Part shown: piece after piece, positions 33,050 to 60,570 of the stretch
Position numbering within the stretch: position 1 is the first letter of the stretch
How the letters are laid out: the number at the start of each line of letters is the position of its first letter
Assembly: GCA_045536405.1 (NCBI GenBank)
Contig: JAZSNM010000025.1
Span: 23,664 to 87,663 of the forward strand
Reading direction: 5' to 3'
Source of the DNA: Christensenellaceae bacterium
Lineage (GTDB): Bacteria > Bacillota > Clostridia > Christensenellales > Borkfalkiaceae
Length of the DNA: 64,000 nucleotides
The notes under the pieces: model-generated
What the model was told of the DNA's origin: nothing
Databases searched by the model: none
The model's input: only the letters and a program-made list of their open reading frames with translations
Position numbers and translations under genes: made by a program

Positions 33050-33187
33050 CCGCGAGATTGCAACTCTACTGTTCGATTATATTATACCACACTAAATATG
33101 ACAACCTACGTCATATATTATATAAAATTTCGCTAAAAATAGCAACGGTCAAACGTCTACGTTTAGGTACATTTGACCGCTTTTGTA
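33050..33187 (+). repeat. Repeat copy A (hairpin + promoter-operator module)
   Basis: 33050-33178 aligns by hand with 53562-53690: 129 nt, 7 mismatches. The tail 33159-33187 matches 54837-54865. Confidence 0.85.
33081..33116 (-). promoter_or_regulatory. Orphan copy of the promoter-operator module
   Basis: The minus strand reads ATATGAC-N7-GTCATAT (33096-33116), then 9 nt, then TGGTATAAT. No ORF lies downstream before the proC terminator. Confidence 0.5.
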
Positions 33188-33203
33188 AAAATATTTATTT
33201 TTC

Positions 33204-33755
33204 TTAAATTTCTACAATCACATCACCATTTTTATCGCGAATATTAAAACCGTCTAAACGATAATCTTTCATCCTGCTTTTATCAAAAGGTTTTTTGATT
33301 TTTGGCATTAACCGATTTTCTCCACCGCCATAGGCAATCAGTAATATCAAAAAACGACCTCGATACGCTAAAGACCGACCAAAGTCATCATCCTGATATA
33401 CGGCATAATAAACATATGAGAACAACGATTCCCCCTCCAAAGCAATATTAGGATTCGCACCATACTCTAACAACAATTGCGCAATTTTTAAGCGGTTCTC
33501 GTCAGATTCGTCCGCCATATCGGAAACCGAAAATTTAGGGTGGGGATATTGTGTATATTGCAGATTCCAAAGCACGTTTTCCCCATCGCAAATCAAATTA
33601 GGATTCGCACCATTTTTCAACAAAACTTCTACCATTTTTATATTTTCAGCTTCGATTGCCTCGCTTAAATATGTGCTTAACAAGCCAAATTTGTTAATGA
33701 ACGGCTGATTAATATCCACTTGTTTTATTCTCTTTTTTATCTCATCCAAAGTCAT
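33204..33755 (-). CDS. Ankyrin-repeat protein
   Basis: 183 aa with two clear ANK consensus segments (VEVLLKNGANPN, AQLLLEYGANPN). Confidence 0.75.
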   Translation of the reverse strand: MTLDEIKKRIKQVDINQPFINKFGLLSTYLSEAIEAENIKMVEVLLKNGANPNLICDGENVLWNLQYTQYPHPKFSVSDMADESDENRLKIAQLLLEYGANPNIALEGESLFSYVYYAVYQDDDFGRSLAYRGRFLILLIAYGGGENRLMPKIKKPFDKSRMKDYRLDGFNIRDKNGDVIVEI

Positions 33756-33862
33756 ATTCCAAACTCTTTTATAAATTCCGTTACGCTTATATTTTGATTA
33801 TTCTCTATTATACGATAACTTTTATCTAAATTTCTATCCGCAATCGCCAATTTTATGAATTC

Positions 33863-35314
33863 TCAGTCTACGTCGAGCTTTAATAAATAGTTCATAACAA
33901 ACTTGGCTTTTTCGTATATCTCGCTTATGACGTCAAAAGTTTCTTCAAACGGATTTTCGCAGTATCTACAATACCCACGTTCTCTATAATCCATTTTATC
34001 TACCAATTGCCCACACTTTTCACAATACGTGTATTTGTAAATACGTAAATTATGGTCGGAATCGTCAAAAGAATCTTCTTCTATACCCATTATCGACAAG
34101 AACTCTTCTTTTGTGATATTGGGATTTTCCATTAAAACCTGATAACTTTTCTCAAAATTATCATCGCATATCGCATCCACAAGCGTCATTAGATCACACC
34201 CTATTTCAGTTAACCGCCTGTCTATGTAATCATATTGTTCCCAAGTTATCCTCGATACGGTTTTAGGTTGTTCCCCTACGTATTCCACCCAACAATTATA
34301 GCCCCAACAATCATTTTTTACGTCTTTTACTTTACGCAAAATGCCCCTATCCATCATAATAGCAAATTGCGTTGACCAAAAATAATACGGGAAGTGATCT
34401 AGATTACGATTCTTTTCGTTTTTATAAATAAAATGAAGAAGACTTGTCAACTTAAACGGTTTATCTTTGGGACAGTTCCTTTCGATAAGTCCGAAATAAT
34501 AATCAATAGGCACGCTTCTTATTTTGTCGCCGTCCGTAATCCTAATCTTTGCATTTTCTTCTTTTAATCTATCCCAAATTTGAGCGTATTTTTCCTTCTC
34601 TTCCGCCATTATAAAATGTGGATTGCTTTGCGAAATCGCAAACCCTATTTGTTCACGATAAAGCTGAGCCCATTTCCGCAATTTATTCACAAATCTTCCG
34701 TTCGGTTTGCGAATTCTTTGGGGCAAATTTAGTAGTAAAATCGAACATTCAATATTACGAAGTAAATGCATTAAATAATATAAAGAACACAAATCTTCAT
34801 TATTATAACTACACCAAAACCGCAACGTATAACCGTCTTTTGCATAATTTACAATCTTCTCGACTAATTGAAGCTGATAATCAACAACTTCTTTCGCTTC
34901 GTGTTCTTCTGCACCCAAGTCGATTACCAATTGATTATAAACGTATGCTAATCTACCCTCGTAGAAGTTTTCATCGCAAATATCGCTAAGCGACAAATGT
35001 AAATTCATACTGCAAAACTCATTATCAAAAGAAAGCATTTTATCAACAAGTGGTGCGTCGAAATATTTGTTATCAATAAAATTCTCAAACAACGCTTTTC
35101 GTTTTTCAAGACTAAATTCTTGAACCCATTTAGCAGGAATACAGCATTCCTTCTCTACACTGCCTTTGGGTGTGGATTCTGTCATTGAAAAACATAAATC
35201 TTCATATTCCGCTTTAACTCTTTTTGCACTAACAAGATACGAGCGCAAGCCGTCCATATCCCCCACGAATACATCTATCATTTTATTTTCTTTGGCTTCA
35301 TAGTTAAGAATCAT
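33863..35314 (-). CDS. DUF1835/DUF3658-like protein with C-terminal CxxC..CxxC zinc ribbon
   Basis: 483 aa. IDVFVGDMDG, LRFWCSYNNEDLCSLYYLMHLL and IWDRLKEENAKIRI..SVPIDYY match my memory of DUF1835 + DUF3658. The C-terminus has CEKCG...CRYCENP. Confidence 0.5.
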   Translation of the reverse strand: MILNYEAKENKMIDVFVGDMDGLRSYLVSAKRVKAEYEDLCFSMTESTPKGSVEKECCIPAKWVQEFSLEKRKALFENFIDNKYFDAPLVDKMLSFDNEFCSMNLHLSLSDICDENFYEGRLAYVYNQLVIDLGAEEHEAKEVVDYQLQLVEKIVNYAKDGYTLRFWCSYNNEDLCSLYYLMHLLRNIECSILLLNLPQRIRKPNGRFVNKLRKWAQLYREQIGFAISQSNPHFIMAEEKEKYAQIWDRLKEENAKIRITDGDKIRSVPIDYYFGLIERNCPKDKPFKLTSLLHFIYKNEKNRNLDHFPYYFWSTQFAIMMDRGILRKVKDVKNDCWGYNCWVEYVGEQPKTVSRITWEQYDYIDRRLTEIGCDLMTLVDAICDDNFEKSYQVLMENPNITKEEFLSIMGIEEDSFDDSDHNLRIYKYTYCEKCGQLVDKMDYRERGYCRYCENPFEETFDVISEIYEKAKFVMNYLLKLDVD

Positions 35315-35346: not shown

Positions 35347-35382
35347 ATTATAACACACTAAATATGACAACTTTCGTCATAT
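35347..35382 (-). promoter_or_regulatory. Promoter-operator module upstream of the DUF1835-like gene
   Basis: The minus strand reads ATATGACgaaagttGTCATAT (35362-35382), then 9 nt, then TGTTATAAT. RBS AAGGAGA and the ATG at 35314 follow. Confidence 0.6.
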
Positions 35383-35485
35383 TTATCAAAATTCTTAACC
35401 CACTCTAAATCTTCTGCGGGTCTAGGCGTATTTTTTTGAGCACCACAAGCCTCATAGCCTAAATCGGACTTATGGCAAAGCTATG

Positions 35486-37636: not shown

Positions 37637-37640
37637 TACC

Positions 37641-38411
37641 TTAAAGCTCCTTTTGAATATACTTAATACTTCTTTCCACTTCCCCTAACGTATCGGGTAA
37701 AAGCGCTGCGTTATCCTGTTCTACTAAATAATACTCTACCCCAAGTGTTTTCAATTTCTCTACGATTGCTTTGAAATTGAGCAGACCTTCTCCCACAGGA
37801 CTGAATGTGGGCTCAATCTTTTTCGTCTCCTCATTGTATGTTTGTTTATAGTCTTTCAAATGCACGCAAGCAATTCTGCCTTTTAATTTTTCAAGCGTCG
37901 ATAAAATATCCACGCCGCCGTATTGCAACCAGTAGGTATCTGCGGTAAAATTAATATACGGCGCATTTTCTACCATATAATCAAATACCGTTTGATTGCC
38001 GTGTTTCAAAAATTCAAACTGGTGATGGTGGTAGAAAAATTTGAACCCGTTTTTCGCCATTTTTTCGCCTGCAGCGTTTAACAATTCTACCGTCTGTTTA
38101 CATTCCGTTTCATCAATGATTTTCGGAATGGGCATTGCGCCCAAGCCAATATATTTGCAACCAAATTGACTATGCTCTTCCATCAAAACGTCCGTTTCGT
38201 TTACAATACGGTCGTATTTTACGTGCGTAAGACAAATCGGCATACCCGTCTCTTCGCTTACACGCTTAATTCTGTCCACTTCATAAGGGCCGCCCGAATA
38301 TTGCATATACGAATATCCCATCTCTTTTAATTTCTTTGCCGTTTCTAAAAATTCTGCTTCCGTTTTAATCAAATTCCGAATGGAATAAAGATTTAACCCT
38401 ACGTCTTTCAT
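37641..38411 (-). CDS. Sugar phosphate isomerase/epimerase (xylose isomerase-like TIM barrel)
   Basis: 256 aa. It contains CVHLKDY and YYLVEQD motifs. Confidence 0.65.
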   Translation of the reverse strand: MKDVGLNLYSIRNLIKTEAEFLETAKKLKEMGYSYMQYSGGPYEVDRIKRVSEETGMPICLTHVKYDRIVNETDVLMEEHSQFGCKYIGLGAMPIPKIIDETECKQTVELLNAAGEKMAKNGFKFFYHHHQFEFLKHGNQTVFDYMVENAPYINFTADTYWLQYGGVDILSTLEKLKGRIACVHLKDYKQTYNEETKKIEPTFSPVGEGLLNFKAIVEKLKTLGVEYYLVEQDNAALLPDTLGEVERSIKYIQKEL

Positions 38412-39256
38412 TTTACAAATTCTCCTTTTTCTTCTTTATAATTCAGTTCTTTTAATATATTTTTCAACGCCGTAACCGCCGCGTCAAAAGCTTCTTGTCC
38501 GTTCGCAAACGTAAATTTGTGCTTCATTTCCGTATTATCAATACTCTTATACGCATCAAACTCCATCAAATGCGGTTCCAAAGTCAACACTTTTTCGTCT
38601 TCAATTTTGGCAACAAGTTCTTTTATTTTCGTATCGCCATATCCAGCGGGCACAAGCTCGCCCGTTTCGCTTATCACGTCTTTGATATGGAAATAATCCG
38701 TTTTAGAATGGAAAATCGCGAGCGTTTCGTCGGCTGCTTGTCCGCATTGTAAATAATTCGCGGGGTCGTAAATATATTTCAAGCCCTCTACGTTTTGCAT
38801 GATTTTCAATACGCGCTCCGCCGTATCCCCAAACACGTCTTTTTCGTTTTCATGGCACATATCCACGCCGTATTCCTTGCCGATTTTCACCATTTCGCGA
38901 AGATATGCAAACACCTTTTCTTCCTCGTCATACGCCTTAAAAAAGCTGAACATTCTAATCTTTTTCGTCTTAAAAATATTCGTAAGCTTGCAAACGTGTC
39001 TTACTTTTTCACAATACTTGTTAAAATCAACGTCTATATCCACTTTGCCAAGCGGCGAACCGATAGACCAAACGGAAATTCCGTTTTCCTCTAATTGCTT
39101 TTGATAAGACTTCGCCTCTTCTTCCGTAAACTCCGCCACGTTTTTGCCGTCTATCGAACGCAATTCCATCAGGGAAATTCCATTTCGTTTCAACGCGGAA
39201 ATTTGTTCCTGTATGCTGTTTCCCGCTTCGTCGGAAAATGCGCTTAATTTTATCAT
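38408..39256 (-). CDS. Sugar phosphate isomerase/epimerase (TIM barrel)
   Basis: The start is moved to the ATG at 39254-39256 (MIKLSAFSDE) after AAAGGAGG. It contains HENE and HIKD motifs. Confidence 0.65.
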   Translation of the reverse strand: MIKLSAFSDEAGNSIQEQISALKRNGISLMELRSIDGKNVAEFTEEEAKSYQKQLEENGISVWSIGSPLGKVDIDVDFNKYCEKVRHVCKLTNIFKTKKIRMFSFFKAYDEEEKVFAYLREMVKIGKEYGVDMCHENEKDVFGDTAERVLKIMQNVEGLKYIYDPANYLQCGQAADETLAIFHSKTDYFHIKDVISETGELVPAGYGDTKIKELVAKIEDEKVLTLEPHLMEFDAYKSIDNTEMKHKFTFANGQEAFDAAVTALKNILKELNYKEEKGEFVK

Positions 39257-40098: not shown

Positions 40099-40129
40099 TT
40101 TTCATTTTCTAATTTAATACAGTAAATAT

Positions 40130-47441: not shown

Positions 47442-47835
47442 ACCATTTCTCCTATATATTATATATAATGTAAAAACAATTCCCTATCTTATGAAAAAAG
47501 CCGTCGTATGTTTTCTCACACAACGGCTTTTCATTTTTTTAGATATACACGTTTACAACAATATCTTCCCACTTGGATTTATGGGTATGCACCCCATAAT
47601 TTCTCCAATGGTATGCCTTCGCTTCTTCAAAGCCGATAATAAATGTCCAAAAAGGCTTATTTATTTTCCCTTACTTTGTTTAATAGCAGCTTGTGCTCGT
47701 TATCTTTTGCCCTTAGCGACAAATTACCCGTTTAATATTAGGCTGTTATCACGATACTGTTATCCATATATTTATCCGCCGTAGCGGTTGTATTCAGTTT
47801 TAATTTTTTTTAGTTTTTCCCTTATCATTCTTATG

Positions 47836-49611
47836 TTATATAAACACCTTTACCGTCAAATCTTGCCATTGATTTGGTCTAAGCATACCGTCTTTTTCCT
47901 TTCGATAAGACCTTGCCGATTTATAATCAATCGTAAATTCCCATACCAACTTTTTCATATCGTTTGGCACATCAATTAAGTCAAAATTCATATACCAATT
48001 AAAACACGTTTCTGTTACGGGAACAATGGTATGAACGAACTGTTTAATCACTTCTCTATCTACGTAGTGTTCGGTAAAATCCATTTTCGACAACAAGAAG
48101 TCTTCCACCTTTTTTGCAGGCTCTTCTTCCCCGTCTTCGTTTGGAACCATCCCCGCATCAAGAATACGCCTTTTGTTTATAAGTTCGATTTTCTCTTGCT
48201 CAATTTCCTTTTTGAGTTCTAAGTAAGATTCTTTCGGGATTTCGTCTTCCAAGCGCATACGAGTTAAGCGTTTTAGTTTTTCGTCTAATTTTGCTATCTC
48301 TTTATCAACCGTTGCCTTAATTTCCGCCGCTTTTTGATATTCTTGAAACACACCGATTTGATATAAAGACGACACGTTATTTAGAATATCTTTCTTGTTA
48401 CCCCATAACCCTGCAAAAATATGCCTTGCCATCATTTCTAATTTCCAATCGCATATTTCTCTAAGATTACAACTTTTTGAATCGTCAATCCCTGCTTCAA
48501 TTCTAATATCCTTAGAACCATAGTTAAGTTGGTTATAGCATTTATATCCATAGATGACTTCGCCGTTTTTATTCTTGCGCCACTTGTTTTTGCGCATTTT
48601 ATAACCGCATCTACATTTTAATTTCTTCGTCCAAACGTCGCTACTTTCGTGAATGCCCGTTTTGTGAAGAACTTCCCCGTTTTCCGTACGGAATTTACTA
48701 TACCTTGTACGTTGCTCTCTTATCTGCTTGCATCTATCCCATTGTTCTTCGGATATAATCGGCTCAAAATCGCCTTTTACGTAAAGATAGGTATCTTCGT
48801 CACGGTTTATAATAATTTTTTGGTCAAGGAAATTATTTCTTCGTGATTTTAAGTACGCAGGATAGCCTTTATAGGTTGAGTTATGTAGTACTCGTGATAC
48901 TTTCGCGTTCTCCCATCTAACTAACCCCGAACTATCTTTTCTTTTACGTCGTATCATCTCGTCACGAATTTGAGATATTCCTTTACCCGCCGAATACATA
49001 TCGTAAATCATACGCACCGTTTCGGCTTGTTCTTCGTTGATTACGTAAGTTCCTTTTGCCTTGTCCCTATCATAACCAAGAATATTACCACTTCCATACA
49101 AAACGCCCTTGTCTCTACTGATTTTTTGCCCCGCGCGCACACGCTCTGAAATTTTTCTGCTTTCTTCTTGCGCAAGCGTTGCCATAATCGTGAGTCTAAG
49201 TTCGCCGTCTCCGTCCATCGTCCAAATATTATCTTCTACGAAATAGACTTCAATGCCGTACTCTTTCAATTCTCTCGTAACTACGAGCGTATCAACCGTG
49301 TTTCTTGCAAATCTACACACTTCTCTCGTTACGATTAAATCAAACTTCTTTTGTTTAGCGTCTTGTATCATCCTTAAAAATGCAGGTCGCTTTTTCGCTT
49401 GCGTTCCCGTAATCCCTTCGTCGATATATTTTTTAATAACATACCAATTAGGATTTCTATCCGCCACGTCGTCGTACCATTGCATTTGATTTTCTAAAGC
49501 CGATAACTGCGCTTCGTGTTCTGTGCTAACTCGTCCGTAGAAAACCACTCTTCTTTGCCTTGCCCTGTTAAAATTAACGTTAGTGGGCATTACCATTCCG
49601 TTTTCAATCAA
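47836..49611 (-). CDS. Large serine recombinase
   Basis: 591 aa. The resolvase-type N-terminus is VVFYGRVSTEHEAQLSALENQ ... DEGITGT ... VTREVCRFARN. A recombinase domain, a Cys-rich zinc ribbon (CRCGYKM..YKCYN) and a coiled coil follow. Confidence 0.9.
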   Translation of the reverse strand: MIENGMVMPTNVNFNRARQRRVVFYGRVSTEHEAQLSALENQMQWYDDVADRNPNWYVIKKYIDEGITGTQAKKRPAFLRMIQDAKQKKFDLIVTREVCRFARNTVDTLVVTRELKEYGIEVYFVEDNIWTMDGDGELRLTIMATLAQEESRKISERVRAGQKISRDKGVLYGSGNILGYDRDKAKGTYVINEEQAETVRMIYDMYSAGKGISQIRDEMIRRKRKDSSGLVRWENAKVSRVLHNSTYKGYPAYLKSRRNNFLDQKIIINRDEDTYLYVKGDFEPIISEEQWDRCKQIREQRTRYSKFRTENGEVLHKTGIHESSDVWTKKLKCRCGYKMRKNKWRKNKNGEVIYGYKCYNQLNYGSKDIRIEAGIDDSKSCNLREICDWKLEMMARHIFAGLWGNKKDILNNVSSLYQIGVFQEYQKAAEIKATVDKEIAKLDEKLKRLTRMRLEDEIPKESYLELKKEIEQEKIELINKRRILDAGMVPNEDGEEEPAKKVEDFLLSKMDFTEHYVDREVIKQFVHTIVPVTETCFNWYMNFDLIDVPNDMKKLVWEFTIDYKSARSYRKEKDGMLRPNQWQDLTVKVFI

Positions 49612-49883
49612 GTTAAATCGCCTCCTTTGAATAATTTATTTTGCTTTACTACACTTTCCCCAAACTGAGTACGCTTCTTTTCAATTTTAGCGTATTCTCG
49701 CTCGTCAATCATTTCGTTATCACGCATAATCTCTAACATCTTAAACGCGATAATCTTATTTAACACCTCCATATTTATTTTTGACTTGTCGATTTTCTCC
49801 ACGTTTTGGGTTTTGTAGCAACCTTGATTTTCCACTTCATTATTTAATTTTTCTTCTCTTAAATTTAATTCCTTATAATTCAA
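49608..49883 (-). CDS. Hypothetical small protein upstream of the recombinase (4-nt overlap)
   Basis: 91-aa ORF translationally coupled to the recombinase gene. Confidence 0.5.
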   Translation of the reverse strand: MNYKELNLREEKLNNEVENQGCYKTQNVEKIDKSKINMEVLNKIIAFKMLEIMRDNEMIDEREYAKIEKKRTQFGESVVKQNKLFKGGDLT

Positions 49884-50020
49884 TTCTCCTTATTTTTTAT
49901 TTTATAGGGTGATATCCGCACTTTTAACGGAAAGATAAGTACGAATGCCCTATGCAATCATTTTTCTCCTTATTAATTCCCGACATTACGGGTGTGTTAA
50001 GCACATAATGTGTTCCGCTG

Positions 50021-50239
50021 TTATTTGCTTTCTTCAAATTCTTTTCGCAAGGTTTGATATCCTAATCTAATCAAATCTACTTTTGAAATTCTTTTTTGTT
50101 TTAAGAAAGCCATTATTTCATCGTGCTCTTTAACGGGAAGTCTCGTGTTAAATTGCCTTGTTGCTTGTTCACGCTCTTCCTTGTGCACGATTTCATACTT
50201 AATTCTTGCCTTTTGTTTTGGCGTTAATTGTTTTTCCAT
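50021..50239 (-). CDS. Hypothetical small basic protein
   Basis: 72-aa ORF with RBS GGAGAA. Confidence 0.5.
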   Translation of the reverse strand: MEKQLTPKQKARIKYEIVHKEEREQATRQFNTRLPVKEHDEIMAFLKQKRISKVDLIRLGYQTLRKEFEESK

Positions 50240-50251
50240 TGTATTTTCTCC

Positions 50252-50614
50252 TTAAATATAAACGATTTCGCTTAAAATCTCTTCTTCAATCACTTGTTTC
50301 ATAGCATTAATTCTTTTAATGTCTTCCAAGTAATTACCCGTAGGGCGATACTGTTCGTTTTTAGAAAGTTTGTCCCACATAGTATCATACAAATCTTCTG
50401 CGGCTTTATCTACTCCGTGCAAGTATTCGGGCAAATGCCCTGCTAAACTTAACAATTTACCGAAGTTATGCTCTTCAATATACTGTTTCGCAAGCGTTCC
50501 ATACTTGCCGTAAACGTGCTTTTTAGGTTTAACTGCTTGTTGATAGATTTTAATTTCTTCCACAGTTAACTCTTCGTTTGCTTCCGCCTTTTTAATGATT
50601 TCTTCTACGTTCAT
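50252..50614 (-). CDS. tnpV: TnpV-like protein
   Basis: The start is set at the ATG at 50612-50614 (MNVEEI) after GGAGGG. GKYGTLAKQYIEEHNFGKLLSLAGHLPEYLHGVD fits the TnpV pattern I recall. Confidence 0.55.
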   Translation of the reverse strand: MNVEEIIKKAEANEELTVEEIKIYQQAVKPKKHVYGKYGTLAKQYIEEHNFGKLLSLAGHLPEYLHGVDKAAEDLYDTMWDKLSKNEQYRPTGNYLEDIKRINAMKQVIEEEILSEIVYI

Positions 50615-50703
50615 AAAACCCTCCCTAAAATTTATTGTAGCAATATTATACCGTGATATCACGAGATAGTCAAGCTGTTTTATATTCTTTTGAGAAAATA
50701 GTT

Positions 50704-51249
50704 TTATCTTAATAGTAAAAGTGTCATTGCGATGCTTTGCGCAAATAGTAGTATAGGCGTAGCCCAAAACATAAACTTTCTAAAACCGCCTTCCACTTGC
50801 ATTTCTTCGCGCTGTTTTTGAATTTCTTTTGCAGTTGTTTTGAGTTCTTCCTTAATCTCTTTCACACTTTCATCCACCGCTTTTTTAGCGTAGGCTTGCA
50901 CGTCATTTACTGAACGAGTAATCTCGTTTTTTATGGTTTGACTTATTTCCGTTTTGAACTGACGTTCCTCCCTCGCTACTTCCCGAAACTCGTCCACCGT
51001 TGCCGTTACTAATCGAGTCATTCTTCTCATCTCGTATTCGTTGTTCTCTTTTAGCGATTTCACTTCGTCCGTCAAGCCCTTGACGAGCGTATTCTGATTC
51101 TTGATTAAGCCGTTGCAGTTCACGCTCGATTTCGCCAATGCTTCTCGAAGTAGTTGGTTGTCCGTCATATCCTTGTACGCATCCGTACGTTTCTCTAATT
51201 CCGACAACGGAGTTGCTTGTTCCCCCGTATCTATTCTTGTTAATGCCAT
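50704..51249 (-). CDS. Coiled-coil protein with C-terminal TM anchor (overlaps the relaxase 3' end in another frame)
   Basis: 181-aa ORF of protein-like composition ending in FMFWATPILLFAQSIAMTLLLL. Its real start may be an internal Met. Confidence 0.45.
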   Translation of the reverse strand: MALTRIDTGEQATPLSELEKRTDAYKDMTDNQLLREALAKSSVNCNGLIKNQNTLVKGLTDEVKSLKENNEYEMRRMTRLVTATVDEFREVAREERQFKTEISQTIKNEITRSVNDVQAYAKKAVDESVKEIKEELKTTAKEIQKQREEMQVEGGFRKFMFWATPILLFAQSIAMTLLLLR

Positions 51250-51973
51250 TTATTATCTCCTTTTTAGTATAATTTTCTCCGAGTTTAGCCCCACGGATAG
51301 GCTTTTTCTTTTTAGGGTGTAAATATGAATATTCAGTTTTCGTTCTACTAAGCGTTACGCCGTAAAGGGAAAGATGCGAAATAAACTCTTCTTCAGATAA
51401 AGCCGTTTGCTTGGCTTCTTCGATAACTTCGCGCAGTTCTTCCTTCCAACTCGTTCCACCTTTAAGAATAATGTGTTGTTCTTCGGCTGTACGGTTGTTC
51501 TTTGCTTTCTTGCGGAAGTCTATCTCTGAAAAGCCCATTTCTTTGCCCAATCGGTTAGCTTCGTCTTTCATATCTGTATAATCTTTTCTTGTTATGCGCA
51601 GTTTTTTGCCCGTAACGGGATGAACGGCGTTTACGACGATATGACTATGTACCGTGTCCGTATCCGTATGCGTAGCAATCACGCACTCGCAATCGCAGAA
51701 AAGTATAGCGGTTAATTCTTCGGCGTAAATATGCGCTTCTTGTGGTGAAACTTTATCTTTTCTATCACAAGATAATTTGAAATGATAATATTTACGCTCT
51801 TCAAACTTTTCGCCTTTACCAAACCGTTTTGCCGTTTGCTCAAACTGCTCGGCATAATCTTCGTCTTCAAACAAGTTTCTTACCGATACAAATTCTGCCT
51901 TGTTTTTATCCGTGACGTAAGCCATAACTTTTTGTGGCGTACTTTTGCTTGACTGACATTTAAGAAGTGGCAT
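50903..51973 (-). CDS. MobA/VirD2-family relaxase
   Basis: 356 aa with the His-triad motif HTDTDTVHSHIVVNAV and the N-terminal Tyr context VMAYVTDK. Confidence 0.8.
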   Translation of the reverse strand: MPLLKCQSSKSTPQKVMAYVTDKNKAEFVSVRNLFEDEDYAEQFEQTAKRFGKGEKFEERKYYHFKLSCDRKDKVSPQEAHIYAEELTAILFCDCECVIATHTDTDTVHSHIVVNAVHPVTGKKLRITRKDYTDMKDEANRLGKEMGFSEIDFRKKAKNNRTAEEQHIILKGGTSWKEELREVIEEAKQTALSEEEFISHLSLYGVTLSRTKTEYSYLHPKKKKPIRGAKLGENYTKKEIINGINKNRYGGTSNSVVGIRETYGCVQGYDGQPTTSRSIGEIERELQRLNQESEYARQGLDGRSEIAKREQRIRDEKNDSISNGNGGRVSGSSEGGTSVQNGNKSNHKKRDYSFSK

Positions 51974-52248
51974 TATCCACCTCCAAGCATATCCGAAAGT
52001 TTCTTATACAAAGACTTACACTCTTTGATAGCGCTGAGTAATTCGTCTTGCGTTGCTCTACCAAAATAATTATTTTTTACTACTTGGTTAAGATTGTTTC
52101 CTTGCCGTTTAAGTTCGGCTAAAATCTCGTTGCCGTTGTCGATATAAATAATAGGCTTGTCCGCAAGCGCGCGTATGAGATAATCCGTTTTACTTTGTCC
52201 GCTTAATTTAATTTTTCTTTCAATCGTTTCCTTTTCCGTTTCCGACAC
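51973..52248 (-). CDS. mobC: MobC-type relaxosome accessory protein
   Basis: 91 aa with the GNNLNQVVKN motif characteristic of MobC. It overlaps the relaxase start by 1 nt. Confidence 0.75.
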   Translation of the reverse strand: MSETEKETIERKIKLSGQSKTDYLIRALADKPIIYIDNGNEILAELKRQGNNLNQVVKNNYFGRATQDELLSAIKECKSLYKKLSDMLGGG

Positions 52249-52375
52249 CCTAAACGAATAGGAATAAGGACGATTTCGTTTAGCCTTTTTCTTCTTAATT
52301 TCTTCTATAATGTTTTCCTCCTACTTTGTTTTTTTGCCAACGTAAAGGGGCTTGGGGGGAAGAACTTCCACCAAC

Positions 52376-52420
52376 GAGGCGAGCGTTTCGCTCGGTAAGT
52401 GGCGTGCCACTTGCGTACCT
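52376..52420 (+). promoter_or_regulatory. oriT candidate (hairpin + MOBQ-like nick motif)
   Basis: CGAGCG-ttt-CGCTCG (52380-52394) is followed immediately by GTAAGTGGCGTGCC. This compares with the RSF1010 nick region GGTAAGTGCGCCCT, from memory. It lies about 130 nt upstream of mobC. Confidence 0.45.
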
Positions 52421-52780
52421 CGCTATCCGATAAGCGAATATACCTCTCCCATAAATTTAAAAGTCGTAAGCCCGACGACGGCTTGCAGTTTTTACGACCA
52501 CGCCGAAGTTTTAAGTCTATCGGCAAGACTGAAATTTGTGCATTTTAATCACCTCCTTATCTTTTATTTATCAAGCGGCAAAAACGCCGAAAATATTCCA
52601 AAGAATTTTTATCCCCCATATATCCAAGGACACGAAAATTTATTTTGCAACCCTTTTTACGAAAAAACTTTAAAAAAGGGGACAAAAAAGTCGTTGATAA
52701 AACTATCACCGACTTTAACCGTGTTTAGGTAATACCTCTATGATGGTCAATCATTCTATTTAATTAGCGCATCACTTAAT

Positions 52781-53389
52781 TTATTTTTTCTTCCTCTTTT
52801 TCCTTTTTTTCTTTGCGAAACTTTTTAATTCTTTATTGATTGCTTCTGCTTTCTCGTCAACGTATTCGCTTGCGTTGTAAAATTCTTCGGGGTCTTCAAA
52901 AACCGACGTGCAACCGTTTCGGCGCGCACGAGCGTTTAGTTCAGGTATCATTCCATCACAACCAAAAGCGCACTCGTAATTAAAGAATAGGTCATCACGT
53001 TCTATACGCCAATACCCTTCCCAACGGAAGTCACGAAGCTTTAATGGGTTGTCCTCCGCGCAAACGTTTTCTATTTGCAGTTCCTTACCCGTGAGCCGAG
53101 ACTTATCCCCTATGTAAACGATACGGTTAGCCTTTTGCTTGCCGTTTTCGTCATACGTAGCTTCACGGCGGATTACGTTTTCCGTCTCCAATTCTTTCAA
53201 TAGCTTTTGCATTGAACGAGTAGAAACGTTAAAAGCGTTTGCGATAGTCTCTAACTTCATTTCACGCCCACTACGCCGACGTAAATAGTTTTTGAGAACT
53301 TCCTTACGCTTTTTACCCGTAAGTTTCCGCATCTGAAGGGAGCCGTTTTCATCAAGAAAATAGAAGTATCCGTAACCTTTTTTCGCCAT
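52781..53389 (-). CDS. HTH DNA-binding protein (winged-helix-like), basic C-terminal tail
   Basis: The start is set at the ATG at 53387-53389 (MAKKGYGYFYF) after GGAAGGGG. It has the HTH ANAFNVSTRSMQKLLKELETENVI and a KKKRKKRKKK tail. Confidence 0.6.
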   Translation of the reverse strand: MAKKGYGYFYFLDENGSLQMRKLTGKKRKEVLKNYLRRRSGREMKLETIANAFNVSTRSMQKLLKELETENVIRREATYDENGKQKANRIVYIGDKSRLTGKELQIENVCAEDNPLKLRDFRWEGYWRIERDDLFFNYECAFGCDGMIPELNARARRNGCTSVFEDPEEFYNASEYVDEKAEAINKELKSFAKKKRKKRKKK

Positions 53390-53561
53390 TTTCCCCTTCC
53401 AACTATAACAAAATTTCACCCTATGCTTAAAACTCCCTTTTGAATGATTATAAGCCAATTGCTACCACATAAGGTAATAAAATGTAGAAAATCAATAGAT
53501 TTTAGTACCAAAAAAATCTTAAAATTTTTTAAAAATAGGTTGTCCACCCTATTTCGCTTAA

Positions 53562-53690
53562 CCGCGAGATTGCAAATCTACTGTTCGATTATATTATACC
53601 ACACTAAATATGACAACCTACGTCATATATTATATAAAATTTCGCTAACAATGGCAACGGTCAAATGTCCACGTTTAAGTACATCTGACC
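53562..53690 (+). repeat. Repeat copy B (hairpin + promoter-operator module)
   Basis: 129 nt with 7 mismatches to 33050-33178, in the same orientation. Confidence 0.85.
53593..53628 (-). promoter_or_regulatory. Promoter-operator module upstream of the 52781..53389 HTH gene
   Basis: The minus strand reads ATATGACgtaggttGTCATAT (53608-53628), then 9 nt, then TGGTATAAT. A leader of about 200 nt separates it from the ATG. Confidence 0.55.
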
Positions 53691-54763: not shown

Positions 54764-54787
54764 AAGTTTCTCCTTTGTTTTTCTTGG

Positions 54788-54796: not shown

Positions 54797-54836
54797 CGAA
54801 GTTGTTAAACCTAATATGGACAGACGCCAATTGTCC

Positions 54837-54865
54837 ACGTTTAGGTACATCTGACCGCTTTTGTA
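54837..54865 (-). terminator. Conserved post-stop hairpin module (copy C)
   Basis: ACGTTTAGGTACATCTGACCGCTTTTGTA matches 33159-33187 with one mismatch. It lies immediately after the stop of 54866..55882. Confidence 0.45.
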
Positions 54866-55882
54866 CTAAAATCTTACAGGTATATTAGATTTATGGATGA
54901 ATTTAGAATAATCTTCCACGTTAAACTCACAATATTTTAAGAAATCTTGTAAACTTTGTTCTGCTAAATCTATTTGTGTAGTAGGAGAAATTGTTAAAGA
55001 TTTTATAGCATTGTGAGAAAATTTTAATTCTAAATAAGGTATTAGAATCCCATTACTTATCCTATATTTATAAATTTCTTTATCTTTTAATTCTTTTAAT
55101 TTTGATTTAGGAACTGTTACAACAATTCTTAATTCCTTTTCTGGAGCAAAACAATCCCTTTTTATAAAACACAAATAATTGCCCGATGTATCTTTTTTAA
55201 ATTTACACTCATCTCCATCAAATTTATAAACGGGAATATCTATATCTTTTTTATCACGAGACATCTTATTAATCTCATTTTCCCACTTCTTTAATTCTAA
55301 TGCCTCATTAGAATAAATTTTTGCTGCAGAATAAAATAATTTCATTGTAGCCAACTGAAAGTTTGAGATTAATTCATTTGAAAACGCTTCACTATATTCA
55401 GATTTGTCGTCTTGACAATATTCAACAACACCAAATGACAATTCGCAACCATCCAAACACTCGTTTCCTTTCAATATGCTTTCAACTAAAAGTTTATCGT
55501 TGAATTCAATATTATATCCTTGATTATTGATTTCTTTTGTATAATAATTCCACATCGGAAGAGAATCTTGGTCTAAAGAAAAACAACATACAAAAGTTTG
55601 GTCCTCAATATTGCGTAAAGATTTTTCTATTTTCATAAACTCTCCTTCTGGCGAGTCTATTAGTTTGGCAAGTGTTGTTAATCCCGCTTTTATTTCATCC
55701 TTATCGTTTAGATAACCGATATTAGTAAACCTTAATGTGGAGTTCTCCAATATCGATTTTAAACCCAATATTGATGTATAATGAAAGATTTGCTTATCCT
55801 TAGTGCCTTGATTGAATTTAATTTTTTGTTTTGTCAACCTTTCATAGTTGATTGCCCGTTTATTAAAATTGAGTTCCGCCAT
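54866..55882 (-). CDS. DUF2971-like protein
   Basis: 338 aa. IFHYTSILGLKSILENSTLRFTNIGYLNDKDE, FVCCFSLDQDSLPMWNYYT..GYNIEF and FAPEKELRIVV fit my memory of the DUF2971 signature. Confidence 0.55.
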   Translation of the reverse strand: MAELNFNKRAINYERLTKQKIKFNQGTKDKQIFHYTSILGLKSILENSTLRFTNIGYLNDKDEIKAGLTTLAKLIDSPEGEFMKIEKSLRNIEDQTFVCCFSLDQDSLPMWNYYTKEINNQGYNIEFNDKLLVESILKGNECLDGCELSFGVVEYCQDDKSEYSEAFSNELISNFQLATMKLFYSAAKIYSNEALELKKWENEINKMSRDKKDIDIPVYKFDGDECKFKKDTSGNYLCFIKRDCFAPEKELRIVVTVPKSKLKELKDKEIYKYRISNGILIPYLELKFSHNAIKSLTISPTTQIDLAEQSLQDFLKYCEFNVEDYSKFIHKSNIPVRF

Positions 55883-55952: not shown

Positions 55953-58511
55953 TTAATCGTTCTTATTCTTAAAAGCCTCTAACAGTTGTGCTTCTATCTC
56001 AGACCTAAAACCATTAAAATAAGTTCCGTCCAACAGCTTCTTTTCAAAATCAGGATATGACGATGGCGACAATATATTAAAATGATATTGAATATCTTTG
56101 CCTTGATTTTCCAACTCTTTGTTAAGAAGTGCAAAATGCTTCATTGCATCAATATACTTCGAATAATTCTCCTTCGAGATATCCCTGTCAGCTTTTGTTT
56201 CTACCACAACTATATGTTTGCCTATTTTCAAGAAGAAATCAGGATTAAAATCTTTAGGACTACTTCCACGTTTCAATATATATGATATTTTATAAAAACC
56301 TACATCTCTTGATTTTATCCAAGAATCAATGATTGCCGACATATTATCTTTTATAATCATTTCAACAAACTTTGTTTCAGGTTCGCGATTAGTAAAAACT
56401 AAACTTAACGGCGTTTTAAAATTGTACACATTACATTGCTTAAATTGCTTGCGTGGAAATTCATCCATAAAATGCTCAAAAACCTCAACTTCTTCATCAA
56501 GCAATTCATTTTTATAGTCATTACTATAATATACAACAATACCATTTTTTAAAGATGAAAACCTTATTGATGATTTATCAAGTTTTATCGTAGATATTTC
56601 TTCAGGAGATTTTACTTTGTTTTCAAAACCTGCTGAAGTGCGCTTTTTACGCAGCAATCCCGTGAATTTACCATTGATTTTTTCAATATTGACCGCAGTT
56701 AACCTATTACCGTTAATATTGGCTTCTTTCATTGATTTTTTGATAAAATCAACTATTTCTTGATATGTCGGCAATTTATCCATTTCGGTTTCGCCGTTAT
56801 TAAAAATCAACTCATTAGACAAATTTCGAATACGCGCTTCGTTTTTTCTACTACGATATTGATTTATTATAGCCGTAGCCACTTCTTCAACTGTTTTTGT
56901 TTCTTTTAAAATTTCATATTCTATATCTTCTGTTCTATTTTTGGCATCTAAATATGTAACAGAACGTGAAATTTTTTCTTCTTGGGTAACAAGTGTCAAT
57001 GGCTTGCTTATATCAAAAGTTTCTGTTTTGTCATAGTTTTCATTAAACTTTTGCGTTTCTACTTTATCATAGTCTAATTTGTGTAAAGTAAAATTATGGT
57101 TTGCGCGGTCTCCTTCTAAGATTACACGACTTGGAAGTATTGCTTCATTTTCCAATACCTCGTCTACAATTTTTCTAATATTCTTACCCCAAGAAGAGTG
57201 ATTAAATACTCTTACCGAAGGCTGCATTTTAAGAGATTCTGGAATTCGTAACCCTCTTCCCAAGACCTGAGAAATTAGAAGTTTTGAATTAAACGCTCTA
57301 TCTTCCCAGGGCACAATTTGAAACACGTTTTTGACGTCCCAACCTTCAGTTAGCATAGAGACAGAAATAATCCACTCTACACGATTATCTTTTTCATCAA
57401 CAGTTTGTAGTATTGGAATATTATTTTTATGGTCCTTATGAGAGGTCACAATTAAAACCTCTCTTTCAATTTCGGACCTGTCTCTATTAGTAAATGATGT
57501 TAAGAAATCTACAAAATCCTCTTCAAGATTCTTGGCAGACTGAATATCTGCGGTTACGATTATAGAAATCGGTTTTATCGAGGTGTATTTATTTTTATTT
57601 TTTATGTGATTTTGATAAATCTTTTGAAACTTTTCATTATCGTTTTCACTAACATCTTCATCAACATAATTAATATTTTTCACAATACGGTCGTCAATTG
57701 CTTGTCTTAAAGAATATCTATAAATTACATCGTTAAAATATGTATCTCCTTTATACGCTGTACCCGTGAATCCTATATGATATTTAAAGCCATAATCAAA
57801 ACTAGTGACAAACGCTTTCCATTTCTTTATATCTGAATCGCTCGAGCCGTTATAAGCATGGTGAACCTCATCGCTTAAAACAAGAGTATCCTCACCCGTA
57901 TTTTCAAAACTGTCTTTTATTGAAGAGCCTGTATTACTATAAACAGCATGAATATTTTCAATACAAATATCTCCATTTGTAATGGTTTGATTTGCTTTTG
58001 TCAATTGAAACGCGCACGGCATATACTTATCTGGAACAGCACTAAGCAAATCTTCTCTACATAAAAGATTTTGAAACTTTTTATTTAGTTCCGATTCAAT
58101 TGTTAAAGATGGGCATAAAATTAAAGTGCGTTTAACTTTTGCTATAGCCATCATAATAAAACAAATACCAAATATAACGTAACTTTTTCCTGTTCCTGTC
58201 GCTAAATCTATAGTAGCCGATAAAATATTGGGTATCTGTAAATCTTTTAAATATTGCGATAATGAAGAATATATAGTCTTAATATCTTCATTCTTTTCAT
58301 AGTTTTCCGCAACTAAATTATTTATCATGTCATATTCGCCAGAAGCTAAAAACACTAACGCTGTTTTTATTGCTTCTTTTTGATATTCACGGTCACCACA
58401 TAAAATATCCAAAAAATCCTGCCATTCCTCTAAGTTTAAGGCTACATGATTATAATTTGAACTAACTTTTAAAACCAAGTTTTTTATATCAGTTTTAATT
58501 ATCCCTTCCAT
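55953..58511 (-). CDS. res: Type III restriction enzyme Res subunit (SF2 helicase + PD-(D/E)xK nuclease)
   Basis: 852 aa with DLATGTGKS (motif I), SDEVHHAY (motif II), FTGTA, MLTEGWDVKNV and QVLGRGLR (motif VI). The C-terminal nuclease-like segment is DFNPDFF...VVVETKA. Confidence 0.85.
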   Translation of the reverse strand: MEGIIKTDIKNLVLKVSSNYNHVALNLEEWQDFLDILCGDREYQKEAIKTALVFLASGEYDMINNLVAENYEKNEDIKTIYSSLSQYLKDLQIPNILSATIDLATGTGKSYVIFGICFIMMAIAKVKRTLILCPSLTIESELNKKFQNLLCREDLLSAVPDKYMPCAFQLTKANQTITNGDICIENIHAVYSNTGSSIKDSFENTGEDTLVLSDEVHHAYNGSSDSDIKKWKAFVTSFDYGFKYHIGFTGTAYKGDTYFNDVIYRYSLRQAIDDRIVKNINYVDEDVSENDNEKFQKIYQNHIKNKNKYTSIKPISIIVTADIQSAKNLEEDFVDFLTSFTNRDRSEIEREVLIVTSHKDHKNNIPILQTVDEKDNRVEWIISVSMLTEGWDVKNVFQIVPWEDRAFNSKLLISQVLGRGLRIPESLKMQPSVRVFNHSSWGKNIRKIVDEVLENEAILPSRVILEGDRANHNFTLHKLDYDKVETQKFNENYDKTETFDISKPLTLVTQEEKISRSVTYLDAKNRTEDIEYEILKETKTVEEVATAIINQYRSRKNEARIRNLSNELIFNNGETEMDKLPTYQEIVDFIKKSMKEANINGNRLTAVNIEKINGKFTGLLRKKRTSAGFENKVKSPEEISTIKLDKSSIRFSSLKNGIVVYYSNDYKNELLDEEVEVFEHFMDEFPRKQFKQCNVYNFKTPLSLVFTNREPETKFVEMIIKDNMSAIIDSWIKSRDVGFYKISYILKRGSSPKDFNPDFFLKIGKHIVVVETKADRDISKENYSKYIDAMKHFALLNKELENQGKDIQYHFNILSPSSYPDFEKKLLDGTYFNGFRSEIEAQLLEAFKNKND

Positions 58512-60512
58512 TTATTTTATCTCCAAAACTTCCTTAAATTCGTTACCAAAAATGTCTACGTATATTAATTTCATTTTATTAGTCAAACATTTAGTTGAAT
58601 CAATTTCGATAACATATCCTTTATCTGTTTCAATTTCATCCGCAAAATAAACTTCTTGCATAATAAAATTCTCGTTAGAACTTGTGTCTAGTAAAACCAT
58701 TGCTAAAATTTTCTCAATTGGATTATTATCTTTGTCAAGTTGCATATACGGTGATGTAACACTACTTATTTCAATTTTAACTTTATTTTTTTGAATACTA
58801 AGCTTAGACTTTACTTCAGGCATTTCATTAAAGTAAAAACCTACTGAATTTTCTATAGAGTTAATATTTTCTTTCTTATTGGGTTGTTGTAGCTTTTTAA
58901 ATTTTAATTTGTGCAATTCGGCAATTACTTGGTAGGGAATTCTAAGCAAATAATATTTTACGTCTCCTACTTTATAATAATCTCCTATAATATCCACGTT
59001 CATTTCTGGTGCAATTAAATAAAAACGTTTTCCAATACGACCACCAAATTGCGCATGCAACTCCTCAATATAACTTTCATCAATTGCCGTATTGTTTTCA
59101 AAATCCTGAAATGTAAAGACTTTTACCCAATCTCCACGACGTTTACCGTCAATCTTGATACCATTTATCTTTGTTTCTTGCCTATCAATATGGAACAAAT
59201 CTAAAACAAAATTATAGTATTTATCTCTTTCTAAATTAAATACTGTTTCTAAATTATAACACCCTGCATTAACAAGACAAAAAGAAGCTGGTTTATGAAG
59301 TGTTAATAATCTTTTTTGTATAGTGTAAATAGACAGCTTTCCCAAATCACAACCTATCCACCTTCTTTGCATTTTCTCAGATGCTATCAAAGTAGTTCCG
59401 CTTCCCGCAAAAAAGTCCATAACTATATCGTCTTTATCAGTAGTCATTTCAATAATTCTCTGGAGCAACGATAATGGCTTTTGCGTTGGATAACCACAGA
59501 TTTCCTTATTGCTACCTTGCAAGTTTGGACAATCCACCCAAAGATTGTTAGCTAATTTCCCCGAATTTTCTCTTTCATTCCAATATGCTTTTTCCTGAAG
59601 AGATTTTCCGTTCATCCACAATCTATTATCAAGTTCTAATGCTTTTAATTTTTCATATACCATTCTCCAACCCTTTTTGGGCGCTTTCCATTTTTTACCT
59701 GTCTCGTCAACATACTCATATTTAGTTCCAACCGTAGGTCCATCCGTTTTTTGCAATGGATACAACCTATATTTACCTCTACCGTCATTATCATCATATT
59801 TGTACATCTTTAGCGTTTTGTCTGACAAGGCTGTATACACATTTCTGAACTTATATCTATCCGTTTTGGTATACCAACATATAAATTGTGTATCTTTAGA
59901 TAAATTTTTGGTCAAAGTTTTTCCAGAACTAGAACTTTGCCAAACAATCTCGTTCCTAAAATTATTTTCGCCGAATATTTCATCCATAACGATTTTGATA
60001 TAATGATACTTTTTCATATCTAGGTGTACAAAAATGCTACCATCATCGGCTAATAATTCTTTTGCCAACATAAGACGTTCTCTTATAAATTCAATGAATT
60101 CCGCACCCTTAATCTTATCACTATACGCTTTTTCTCCGTCTTTAGCAGAAAAATCTCCCTCTGTTGCAAATGGAGGGTCTATATAAATAAGTTTAACCTT
60201 CCCTTTTACTTTATCCTTAATTAAAGGGTCTTTATTCTCATAAATGGTTTTAAGCGCTTGAAAATTATCGCCACAAATAAGTAAATTGTGCCAATCTTCA
60301 GTAGCGCTACAATTAAATTCTTTTTCTATTTGAAAAGGAACAGCTTGAGGCTCGTTTCCAATAGAAAGTATTTCTTGTTTTGACTTTTTCTCTTTGTAAG
60401 TTAAAGAATACTCCTTATGGTCTATAGGAAATAAAACTTCTTGATAAGAAGAAGGAAGCGGTTTACCACTTTGTAAAATATTAACAATTGTATCTATAGT
60501 ATTTTTATCCAT
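58512..60512 (-). CDS. mod: Type III R-M Mod subunit (beta-class N6A/N4C DNA methyltransferase)
   Basis: 666 aa. LIYIDPPF (motif IV) precedes FFAGSGTT (motif I). The stop abuts the res start. Confidence 0.85.
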   Translation of the reverse strand: MDKNTIDTIVNILQSGKPLPSSYQEVLFPIDHKEYSLTYKEKKSKQEILSIGNEPQAVPFQIEKEFNCSATEDWHNLLICGDNFQALKTIYENKDPLIKDKVKGKVKLIYIDPPFATEGDFSAKDGEKAYSDKIKGAEFIEFIRERLMLAKELLADDGSIFVHLDMKKYHYIKIVMDEIFGENNFRNEIVWQSSSSGKTLTKNLSKDTQFICWYTKTDRYKFRNVYTALSDKTLKMYKYDDNDGRGKYRLYPLQKTDGPTVGTKYEYVDETGKKWKAPKKGWRMVYEKLKALELDNRLWMNGKSLQEKAYWNERENSGKLANNLWVDCPNLQGSNKEICGYPTQKPLSLLQRIIEMTTDKDDIVMDFFAGSGTTLIASEKMQRRWIGCDLGKLSIYTIQKRLLTLHKPASFCLVNAGCYNLETVFNLERDKYYNFVLDLFHIDRQETKINGIKIDGKRRGDWVKVFTFQDFENNTAIDESYIEELHAQFGGRIGKRFYLIAPEMNVDIIGDYYKVGDVKYYLLRIPYQVIAELHKLKFKKLQQPNKKENINSIENSVGFYFNEMPEVKSKLSIQKNKVKIEISSVTSPYMQLDKDNNPIEKILAMVLLDTSSNENFIMQEVYFADEIETDKGYVIEIDSTKCLTNKMKLIYVDIFGNEFKEVLEIK

Positions 60513-60534
60513 AATTTAACTCCATTTTTTCTTA

Positions 60535-60570
60535 ATTATATCATACTAAATATGACAATTTCCGTCATAT
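60535..60570 (-). promoter_or_regulatory. Promoter-operator module upstream of mod
   Basis: The minus strand reads ATATGACggaaattGTCATAT (60550-60570), then 9 nt, then TGATATAAT. RBS TGGAG and the ATG at 60512 follow. Confidence 0.6.

Follow-up and report, generated by a model that had tools for sequence, protein, structure and literature searches.

Predicted Promoter-Palindrome Cassettes in a Clostridial Defense Island

A 21-bp palindrome, ATATGAC-N7-GTCATAT, recurs four times in the 64,000-nt stretch of a Christensenellaceae genome analyzed here (contig JAZSNM010000025.1; hereafter the window, to which all coordinates refer, with sequences read on the minus strand), and each copy is followed at a fixed distance by an extended −10 element. 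We interpret the repeated unit as a compact, portable promoter of 40–42 nt, which would consist of an A/T tract, the palindrome, and an extended −10 (TRTGnTAnAAT), with the palindrome at about −43 to −23, where a −35 element is missing. The cassette would head the operon behind it, namely the Type III mod-res genes, a DUF1835/DUF3658-ankyrin gene pair, and the first gene of an integrative mobilizable element (IME) in the window, and other anti-phage systems elsewhere. That the unit is a real promoter with a protein-binding palindrome is predicted with high confidence. On balance, we also favor its control by a dimeric, probably WYL-type regulator that senses single-stranded DNA (ssDNA) and is encoded elsewhere.

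Exact matches to the palindrome lie at 33096–33116, 35362–35382, 53608–53628, and 60550–60570, against an expectation of 0.00 from 100 shuffles, and the looser core TGAC-N7-GTCA is confined to the same four places within the window (0.38 expected). All four copies read AATATGACGnAnnTTGTCATAT-TTAGTnTGn-TATAAT, with exactly 9 nt from the right arm to the −10 hexamer (4/4) and TG at −15/−14. The identical geometry described in the original prediction, which had been made from the letters of the window, is thus confirmed, as are the gene relations that it reported: the −10 of the 60550 copy ends 22 nt before the mod start codon (ATG at 60512), that of the 35362 copy ends 32 nt before the start codon of the DUF1835/DUF3658 gene (ATG at 35314), the 53608 copy lies ∼200 nt upstream of the start codon (ATG at 53389) of a gene for a 202-aa winged helix-turn-helix (wHTH) protein, and no gene stands behind the 33096 copy.

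The four copies fall into three kinds and are not all independent, a correction to the original prediction. Copies 33096 and 53608 are contained in a 129-nt direct repeat (33050–33178 and 53562–53690, 95% identical), which comprises, in order, a 32-nt hairpin, a promoter P1 (TTGCTA/TTGCCA-N17-TATAAT), the palindrome, the extended −10, and a leader ending in GCAATCTCGCGG. P1 of this long form abuts the palindrome, which covers the P1 start site. The remaining copies, 35362 and 60550, represent a short form of A/T tract, palindrome, and −10. The 32-nt hairpin was also considered as a general terminator and rejected as such, as it occurs only within the long form, plus one truncated copy.

Distribution of the Module in Other Genomes

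When 185,579 species genomes were searched for ATATGAC-N7-GTCATATTTAGT, 38 loci were returned. True members numbered 35, and the 32 metagenome-assembled genomes (MAGs) that contain them, most of ruminant-gut origin, belong to Christensenellaceae, Pumilibacteraceae, and other Clostridia; matches in Leptospira, Bacteroidetes, and Aquimarina were treated as chance or unrelated. Public runs containing the window sequence were ruminant or gut metagenomes too, and no copy was present in 2.9 M viral contigs. Each MAG held one to three exact copies (three in RGIG5446), and most 8-kb loci had a single one. The shared core measures 40–42 nt.

Where an upstream open reading frame (ORF) was called, it was always co-directional and ended 0–12 nt before the palindrome, with one exception (23 nt, locus L011), and called downstream ORFs started 48–152 nt past the palindrome start, again with a single exception (198 nt, L009). 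A high-copy repeat unrelated to gene starts, one of the outcomes that would have overturned the original prediction, or a miniature inverted-repeat transposable element, was rejected on the basis of one to three exact copies per MAG, none in viral contigs, and a position always at gene boundaries.

Genes upstream of the module encoded XRE (HTH_26) proteins, a HipA-like pair, Fic, RhuM, Schlafen/AlbA_2, and AbiEii, and in clusters C10–C11 an unannotated gene preceded one with an XRE domain. The gene behind the module usually belonged to an anti-phage system, of which at least 10 types were represented, or to an IME backbone. Defense genes in this position included PDC-S37/Hhe, type I, IIG, and III restriction-modification (R-M), DUF262 (Orf5/HEC-06), PD-Lambda-1, and PDC-S11, together with a 909-aa protein with a DruE-like (Druantia-like) helicase and a ZorD/DpdE-like SNF2 helicase. 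Upstream and downstream families were paired in many combinations, and contigs from other metagenomes shared with the window only positions 53590/92 to 53628/31, which correspond to the palindrome and the −10. Because of these combinations and the restriction of the matches to palindrome and −10, we conclude that the unit is a discrete junction of mosaic defense islands. One layout recurred, in which a short module, a defense operon, and an IME long module follow one another (twice in the window and in L033, L038/L044, and L053). Rather than a circuit distributed over 27 kb, as originally proposed, the unit is better described as a family-wide portable cassette of defense islands and IMEs.

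Promoter Signature

The bases behind the palindrome were profiled in 34 unique copies from other genomes, for which positions 27–36 lay outside the search pattern. Strong conservation was found at T28 (31/34), G29 (27/34), T31 (31/34), A32 (33/34), A34 (33/34), A35 (31/34), and T36 (32/34), the third base of the hexamer (position 33) is free (T19/A11/G4), and information is at background from position 37, directly past the hexamer. The gap between palindrome and TAnAAT is 9 nt in every copy that keeps the hexamer. No −35-like hexamer was found 16–18 nt upstream of the −10 in this profile, and the palindrome is preceded by 12 A/T-rich nt (AAAnTTTTATAA), at the place expected for an UP element. 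As judged from sequence, TGnTAnAAT at a fixed distance from the palindrome is a classic extended −10 signature, and the 34-copy profile bears out the initial proposal of a promoter with a protein-type palindrome over the −35 position that is common to functionally unrelated genes. The right-arm sequence TTGTCA was considered as a −35 and discarded; it lies 12 nt from the conserved −10 and fits only a second, non-conserved TATAAT in the long forms of the window.

The Palindrome as a Probable Protein Site

In the 34 copies, conservation of the unit peaks in the 14 arm bases of the palindrome, while the spacer varies. A metagenome scan that left the inner arms free recovered 14 true hits, and the arms were exact in 12. 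All arm variants found (AAATGAC, GAT, ATCATAT, and ATACGAC) were single and uncompensated. Across ∼55 copies no compensatory change was seen, though the loop varies freely. As a covariation test the arm-free scan was uninformative for structure, with arms almost invariant, and it instead shows sequence constraint.

These data bear on whether the palindrome might be an RNA or DNA hairpin that terminates, insulates, or stabilizes the upstream transcript, with the −10 being independent of it. Its location 0–12 nt past the stop codon, which applies to nearly every copy for which an upstream ORF was called, would suit such a role, the RNA folds into an 8–13-bp stem (locus minimum free energy −11 to −13 kcal/mol, z −1.8 to −4.9), and a G-U pair would survive in the arm variant GAC to GAT. 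However, the stem is A/U-rich and is followed by UUAGUGUGG instead of a U-tract, so that it lacks the features of an intrinsic terminator, and the terminator scan made no call. The variants AAATGAC, ATCATAT, and ATACGAC break pairs, compensatory changes are absent, and a search for a known RNA family gave no Rfam match. We regard the hairpin explanation as highly improbable; the pattern of conservation is a better fit to a dimer that recognizes a specific sequence than to a structural hairpin.

Relation to the Mobilizable Element

The long form at 53562–53690 is the left end of an IME, the serine recombinase of which is encoded with 100% protein identity on at least 14 public contigs. Alignment of the flanks of 10 loci with the identical recombinase gave one conserved block, from the first base of the hairpin to GATAACGAGCACAAGC, ∼147 nt past the recombinase stop codon, with both flanks differing; the element ends in the 10 loci are the hairpin start and GAGCACAAGC. 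The right flanks share a loose motif, AAACATYAARAAYCCYAGA, and the left flanks often read TTTTACAAAAGC, which looks like a preferred target of the form TTTTACAAAAGC followed by AAACATYAARAAYCCYAGA. The excised circle is predicted to join GAGCACAAGC to GGTCAGATG. The 33050–33178 copy is flanked by TTTTTACAAAAGC on one side and by AAAATAAAACCAC on the other, beyond which lies the host proC terminator. Since these are IME-type flanks, the supposed orphan regulatory site at 33096 belongs to a solo remnant of an IME left end.

The palindrome lies ∼62 nt inside the left end of the element and is absent from the right end, so it is not the crossover site. A site-specific recombination (att or cassette) site marking cassette exchange was an alternative in view of the 7-7-7 geometry, which resembles a recombinase core site, the many combinations of upstream and downstream families with breakpoints at the module edges, and the serine recombinases linked to several loci. 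The end mapping in 10 loci rules out an att site of the linked recombinase, however, and conservation is asymmetric, extending only toward the −10 and stopping exactly there, with spacers that differ among copies and a single copy in most 8-kb loci. We therefore consider a recombination site very unlikely. An integron array, whose cassettes lack promoters and each end in an attC, was likewise rejected: neither IntI nor attC was found in the island or in the loci, and the repeat, which contains a promoter, is located 5′ of genes. Tyrosine recombinases were represented only by an incomplete integrase of phage type at the edge of locus L044.

Some related IMEs begin with an unrelated 849-aa gene behind the same long form, and others have the hairpin with a plain TTGACT-17-TATGAT promoter and no palindrome, or neither. 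Given this variation, the palindrome and −10 are a swappable regulatory cassette and not a fixed part of the IME. The family as a whole is mosaic (47689–53690; L039–L048 and L065–L068): at least 14 contigs have a near-identical right half (TnpV, the 72-aa RHH-like protein, the 91-aa protein, and the serine recombinase), and the left half holds either the 849-aa protein and a relaxase or the 202-aa wHTH protein, NikA, and a relaxase. The 129-nt repeat ends exactly at GCAATCTCGCGG in both copies (33050 and 53562), and the motif GCAATCTCGCGGTTAAG is found upstream of the wHTH gene in all IME variants (L071–L083), including those lacking hairpin and palindrome. The GCAATCTCGCGG end or GCAATCTCGCGGTTAAG may be a relaxase nick site or a recombination point.

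A further explanation holds that the unit is a strong constitutive promoter spread by homologous recombination, its palindrome either having no dedicated binder or serving the IME relaxosome or origin of transfer (oriT). Highly similar “mobile” promoters before different genes have been described (PMC3575422), and the module shares this reuse. For a relaxosome or oriT role, the long form lies upstream of NikA-relaxase genes, and the GCAATCTCGCGG motif at which the 129-nt repeat ends is kept before all HTH-type IMEs. Yet the arms, the 14 most conserved bases, add nothing to RNA polymerase recognition, and most copies have no relaxase nearby. This explanation is unlikely in our estimation, and regulation through the palindrome remains the favored one.

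Likeness to DriD and DdaA Sites and the Candidate Regulator

The closest known systems are the promoters controlled by DriD and DdaA. The box of DriD, an ssDNA-triggered activator of the wHTH-WYL-WCX type from Caulobacter crescentus, is ATACGAC-N7-GTCGTAT, and the oligonucleotide ATATGACAGTTACTGTCATAT, with the same arms as the window sites, was bound by DriD plus ssDNA with a Kd of 6.9 nM, compared with 1.6 nM for the consensus; replacing a G or C that is kept in the window site lowered DriD affinity 300–600-fold (PMC10853764). Both boxes measure 21 bp, with 7-bp arms and a 7-bp spacer, and agree in ATAyGAC…GTCrTAT, with one transition per arm. Relative to the box pattern xCGxC-N7-GxCGx, the core TGAC-N7-GTCA keeps the invariant G2/C4 and G12/C14, and only C1/G15 are changed, to T/A. 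Promoters of the DriD/DdaA type have an A/T-rich spacer separating the half-sites; in the module, the consensus spacer GGAAGTT is 4/7 A/T, and individual spacers range from ∼43% to 100% A/T. A −35 is absent from DriD-controlled promoters and the box overlaps its place, with a constant distance to the −10, and the −35 optimized by the DriD authors occupies box positions 7–12 (PMC13004042). From this placement, the −10 starts ∼8 nt past the DriD box, compared with 9 nt in the window, so that box location and fixed −10 distance agree to within 1 bp. The two differ in host (alphaproteobacteria vs. a Firmicute) and in targets (recA, didA, and bapE vs. defense and mobile-element genes), and the window cassette has a near-consensus −10 with TG and, in the long form, a box that also covers a second promoter start.

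DdaA, a WYL activator of genes for DNA damage and phage defense in Moraxellaceae with the motif CGWCA-N5-TGWCG, activates R-M, Zorya, and CRISPR-Cas promoters (PMC12392091; PMC13010146). Its regulon resembles the present one in having a single palindromic WYL box with equal core spacing in promoters of defense systems (PMC12392091; PMC13010146). DdaA boxes sit in otherwise unrelated chromosomal promoters, whereas the window type is a conserved 42-nt cassette of box, spacer, and −10 that travels with or between defense cassettes and IMEs and marks mosaic junctions. The WYL repressors CapW and BrxR also control defense systems and sense ssDNA (PMC11662680). They share with the window the palindromic operator overlapping the promoter of an anti-phage operon, with ssDNA as the inducer (PMC11662680; PMC13622015), but are encoded directly beside the system that they control; in the window there is no adjacent regulator gene, and one site type serves many systems.

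On these grounds we propose that the palindrome is bound by a homodimeric transcription factor encoded elsewhere and not adjacent to the cassette, the most likely candidate being an ssDNA-responsive wHTH-WYL-WCX protein, either an activator of the class of DriD and DdaA or a repressor of the class of CapW and BrxR. The defense cassettes and the IME entry gene would then be switched on together when phages attack, DNA is damaged, or conjugative DNA enters. The specific assignment of the binder to a WYL-type regulator elsewhere in the chromosome is tentative, with slightly less than an even chance of being correct. As to the direction of control, the box position matches activators, and the near-consensus −10 and the box over the P1 start favor repression. 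P1 of the long form ends at the palindrome, so a bound dimer would block it, and repression is favored there.

Several observations weigh against this proposal. A regulator of the DriD/DdaA type is expected in the same genome, usually with a box before its own gene, but Pfam, gene tables, and a motif scan revealed no gene with a WYL domain in the 64-kb window or in any of the retrieved loci. Many HTH dimers could read TGAC-N7-GTCA. A near-consensus −10 fits an activator-dependent promoter poorly. With a strict search pattern, no DNA-repair gene was found behind the module, and the absence of the palindrome from some related IMEs makes it dispensable for the element. The only metatranscriptome with the locus is too thin for start mapping, with the locus at depth 1–4, sparse reads over mod, and no contrast of conditions. 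A 324-aa protein behind the module in L035 that appeared WYL-like by eye was dropped as a candidate, having no Pfam or PDB support.

A regulator encoded close by would make the palindrome the operator of a local repressor, as part of an element-immunity or C-protein-like circuit. The repressor would be either an XRE protein at 62.5–63.2 kb or the 202-aa wHTH protein, which would control its own promoter and also act in trans. In the largest cluster of upstream genes, which accounts for 11 of the 33 copies whose upstream ORF was called, the module is immediately preceded by HTH_26 XRE genes, those of the window are ∼2 kb upstream of the 60550 module, and the wHTH gene is the first behind the long form, a typical autoregulatory layout. 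Against this, the palindrome also heads operons behind HipA-like, Fic, RhuM, Schlafen, and AbiE genes with no XRE gene, as well as IMEs with the unrelated 849-aa first gene, and the window XRE proteins have no relatives in other loci, each of their genes being preceded by a differing repeat. The 202-aa protein was rejected as the binder because its homologues and the palindrome each occur without the other. Dozens of palindrome loci contain no homologue of the 80-aa XRE, 89-aa XRE, or 202-aa proteins, and the regulators named in the original prediction are accordingly not upheld; a local repressor seems quite unlikely.

The suggested resemblance of the module to C-protein/C-box control extends to a palindrome close to the promoter of an R-M system and to recognition by a dimer of a small HTH protein. 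C-boxes, in contrast, are tandem and lie upstream of a C gene that adjoins or overlaps the endonuclease gene and is co-transcribed with it, whereas the window site is single and also heads non-R-M genes. Such control was rejected for the window: the operon of module, mod, res, and DUF2971 includes no small HTH gene, no C gene is linked to mod-res, and the nearest XRE genes lie >2 kb upstream, beyond AbiEi/AbiEii. The stoperators of cluster A mycobacteriophages are similar in that one repeated regulatory sequence is found at gene boundaries, in a single orientation and near stop codons. Stoperators are 13–14-bp asymmetric sites present in tens of copies per phage. Unlike them, the window site is palindromic, numbers one to four per genome, and is fused to a −10.

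Compared with these systems, the novel aspects are the gut-Firmicute host, the T-variant box fused to a Gram-positive extended −10 in one conserved 42-nt cassette, and the apparent service of this cassette to mobilizable elements and at least 10 types of defense system while marking junctions of island reshuffling. Beyond a few proteobacteria, little is known of how bacteria time the production of anti-phage systems that are costly or toxic. Extended to its full scope, our proposal would be that uncultured gut Clostridia (Christensenellales and relatives) possess an ssDNA-sensing WYL regulon on a mobile 42-nt cassette, which would place a changing set of at least 10 kinds of anti-phage systems, together with IME entry genes, under one alarm raised by phage attack, DNA damage, or conjugative ssDNA entering the cell and also act as a homology anchor for swaps of defense cassettes between islands; this broad form is possible but doubtful. 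If true, one short cassette would identify the defense regulon of a major, mostly uncultured gut group, the regulator could be found by DNA pull-down with the 21-mer, IME establishment and immunity would be tied to one ssDNA signal, and the mosaic character of the islands would have a mechanical explanation. The cassette would also be a search handle for new defense genes, since several unannotated genes stand behind it, as do the DUF1835/DUF3658-ankyrin pair and the 909-aa DruH-like protein.

Genomic Context and Additional Observations

The modules of the window belong to an island from 33.05 to ∼63.8 kb, between the host proBAC genes plus malic enzyme and a rhodanese-type gene (Table 1). On the minus strand it begins with two XRE genes, AbiEi, AbiEii, the short module, mod, res, DUF2971, and a 331-aa membrane protein. 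The long module, wHTH, NikA-like, relaxase, TnpV, two small ORFs, and the large serine recombinase follow, and the island ends with ∼12 kb of higher-GC, partly decayed cargo, a short module, the DUF1835/DUF3658 and ankyrin genes, and the long-module remnant.

Table 1. Modules, element ends, and associated genes in the window.
Feature	Coordinates	Strand	Details
Two HTH_26 XRE genes (80 aa, 89 aa)	62543..63169	minus	Own, differing upstream repeats
Defense genes around the 60550 module	55953..62246	minus	Pfam/PADLOC
AbiEi, AbiEii	62246-61509, 61509-60571	minus	Upstream of the 60550 module
Short-form module, Type III mod-res	60535..60584	minus	A/T tract directly after AbiEii stop codon (60571-60573), palindrome 60570-60550, TTAGTATGA, TATAAT 60540-60535
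Type III mod, res, then DUF2971	60512-58512, 58511-55953, 55882-54866	minus	Downstream of the 60550 module
Partial third hairpin copy	54828..54872	minus	Directly after DUF2971 stop codon
IME	47689..53690	minus	Left end, hairpin first base; right end, GATAACGAGCACAAGC at 47689
Long-form module, IME left end	53562..53690	minus	Hairpin GGTCAGATGT-N12-ACATTTGACC (53690-53659)
Promoter P1 in the long form		minus	TTGCCA 53657-53652, 17 nt, TATAAT 53634-53629
Remainder of the long form		minus	Palindrome 53628-53608; extended −10 TGGTATAAT, hexamer 53598-53593; leader end GCAATCTCGCGG at 53562
IME genes, in order		minus	202-aa wHTH (53389-52781), NikA-like, MobA/VirD2-type relaxase, TnpV, 72-aa ribbon-helix-helix (RHH)-like, 91-aa protein, large serine recombinase (49611-47836)
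Short-form module, DUF1835/DUF3658 gene	35347..35396	minus	Palindrome 35382-35362, −10 35352-35347
DUF1835/DUF3658 gene (483 aa), then ankyrin gene	35314-33863, 33755-33204	minus	Operon behind the short module
Solo 129-nt IME left end (“orphan”)	33050..33178	minus	Hairpin 33178-33147, P1 33145-33117, palindrome 33116-33096, −10 33086-33081

The DUF1835/DUF3658-ankyrin pair (33204–35314) had no PADLOC match. Standing behind a cassette that heads known defense systems elsewhere, the DUF1835/DUF3658 protein and the small ankyrin-repeat protein are a candidate new defense pair. Behind the module in L010, L012, L020, L022, and L023, the 909-aa protein, which has no family match, is followed by the DruE-like helicase; the two are probably a Druantia type III-like pair in Clostridia.

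The hairpins at 53690–53659 and 54828–54872 bracket a 1166-bp insertion of one gene, that of the 331-aa membrane protein (54763–53768). Both bracketing copies of the segment (53666–54831) are the first 25 nt of the hairpin. A sheep-gut contig (11 kb, depth 47) joins 53665 straight to 54832, without the segment, which is thus a presence/absence polymorphism at the hairpin.

Upstream of the 80-aa XRE gene (63170–63260), TACGTAG-N6-CTACGTA is followed by TATTTAG, a module-like layout with other arms, and the 89-aa XRE gene is preceded by a repeated CACAATAAAC (62813–62926). Between the IME and the DUF1835 module (35400–47690), GC content reaches 0.50, and the region contains sugar genes (GH31, a GFO/IDH/MocA fusion, xylose-isomerase-like, and AraC) and gene fragments (IS200 transposase, PPDK_N, an IMS/Y-family polymerase in two parts, and a BspA-type leucine-rich repeat protein), with an STnc490-like RNA match at the IS200 transposase (40707–40825). 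This region looks like decaying foreign cargo.

Among islands with the short module, the left border is conserved over ∼100 nt and includes a hairpin, AGAACTTGGA…TCCAAGTTCTTTTT. This border is seen in L001, L012, L015, L017, L022, L028, L004, L016, L018, and L010, and in the last of these it lies directly after a tRNA gene. One part of the border, GAAACATTAAAAATTTATAGG, resembles the motif of the IME right flank.

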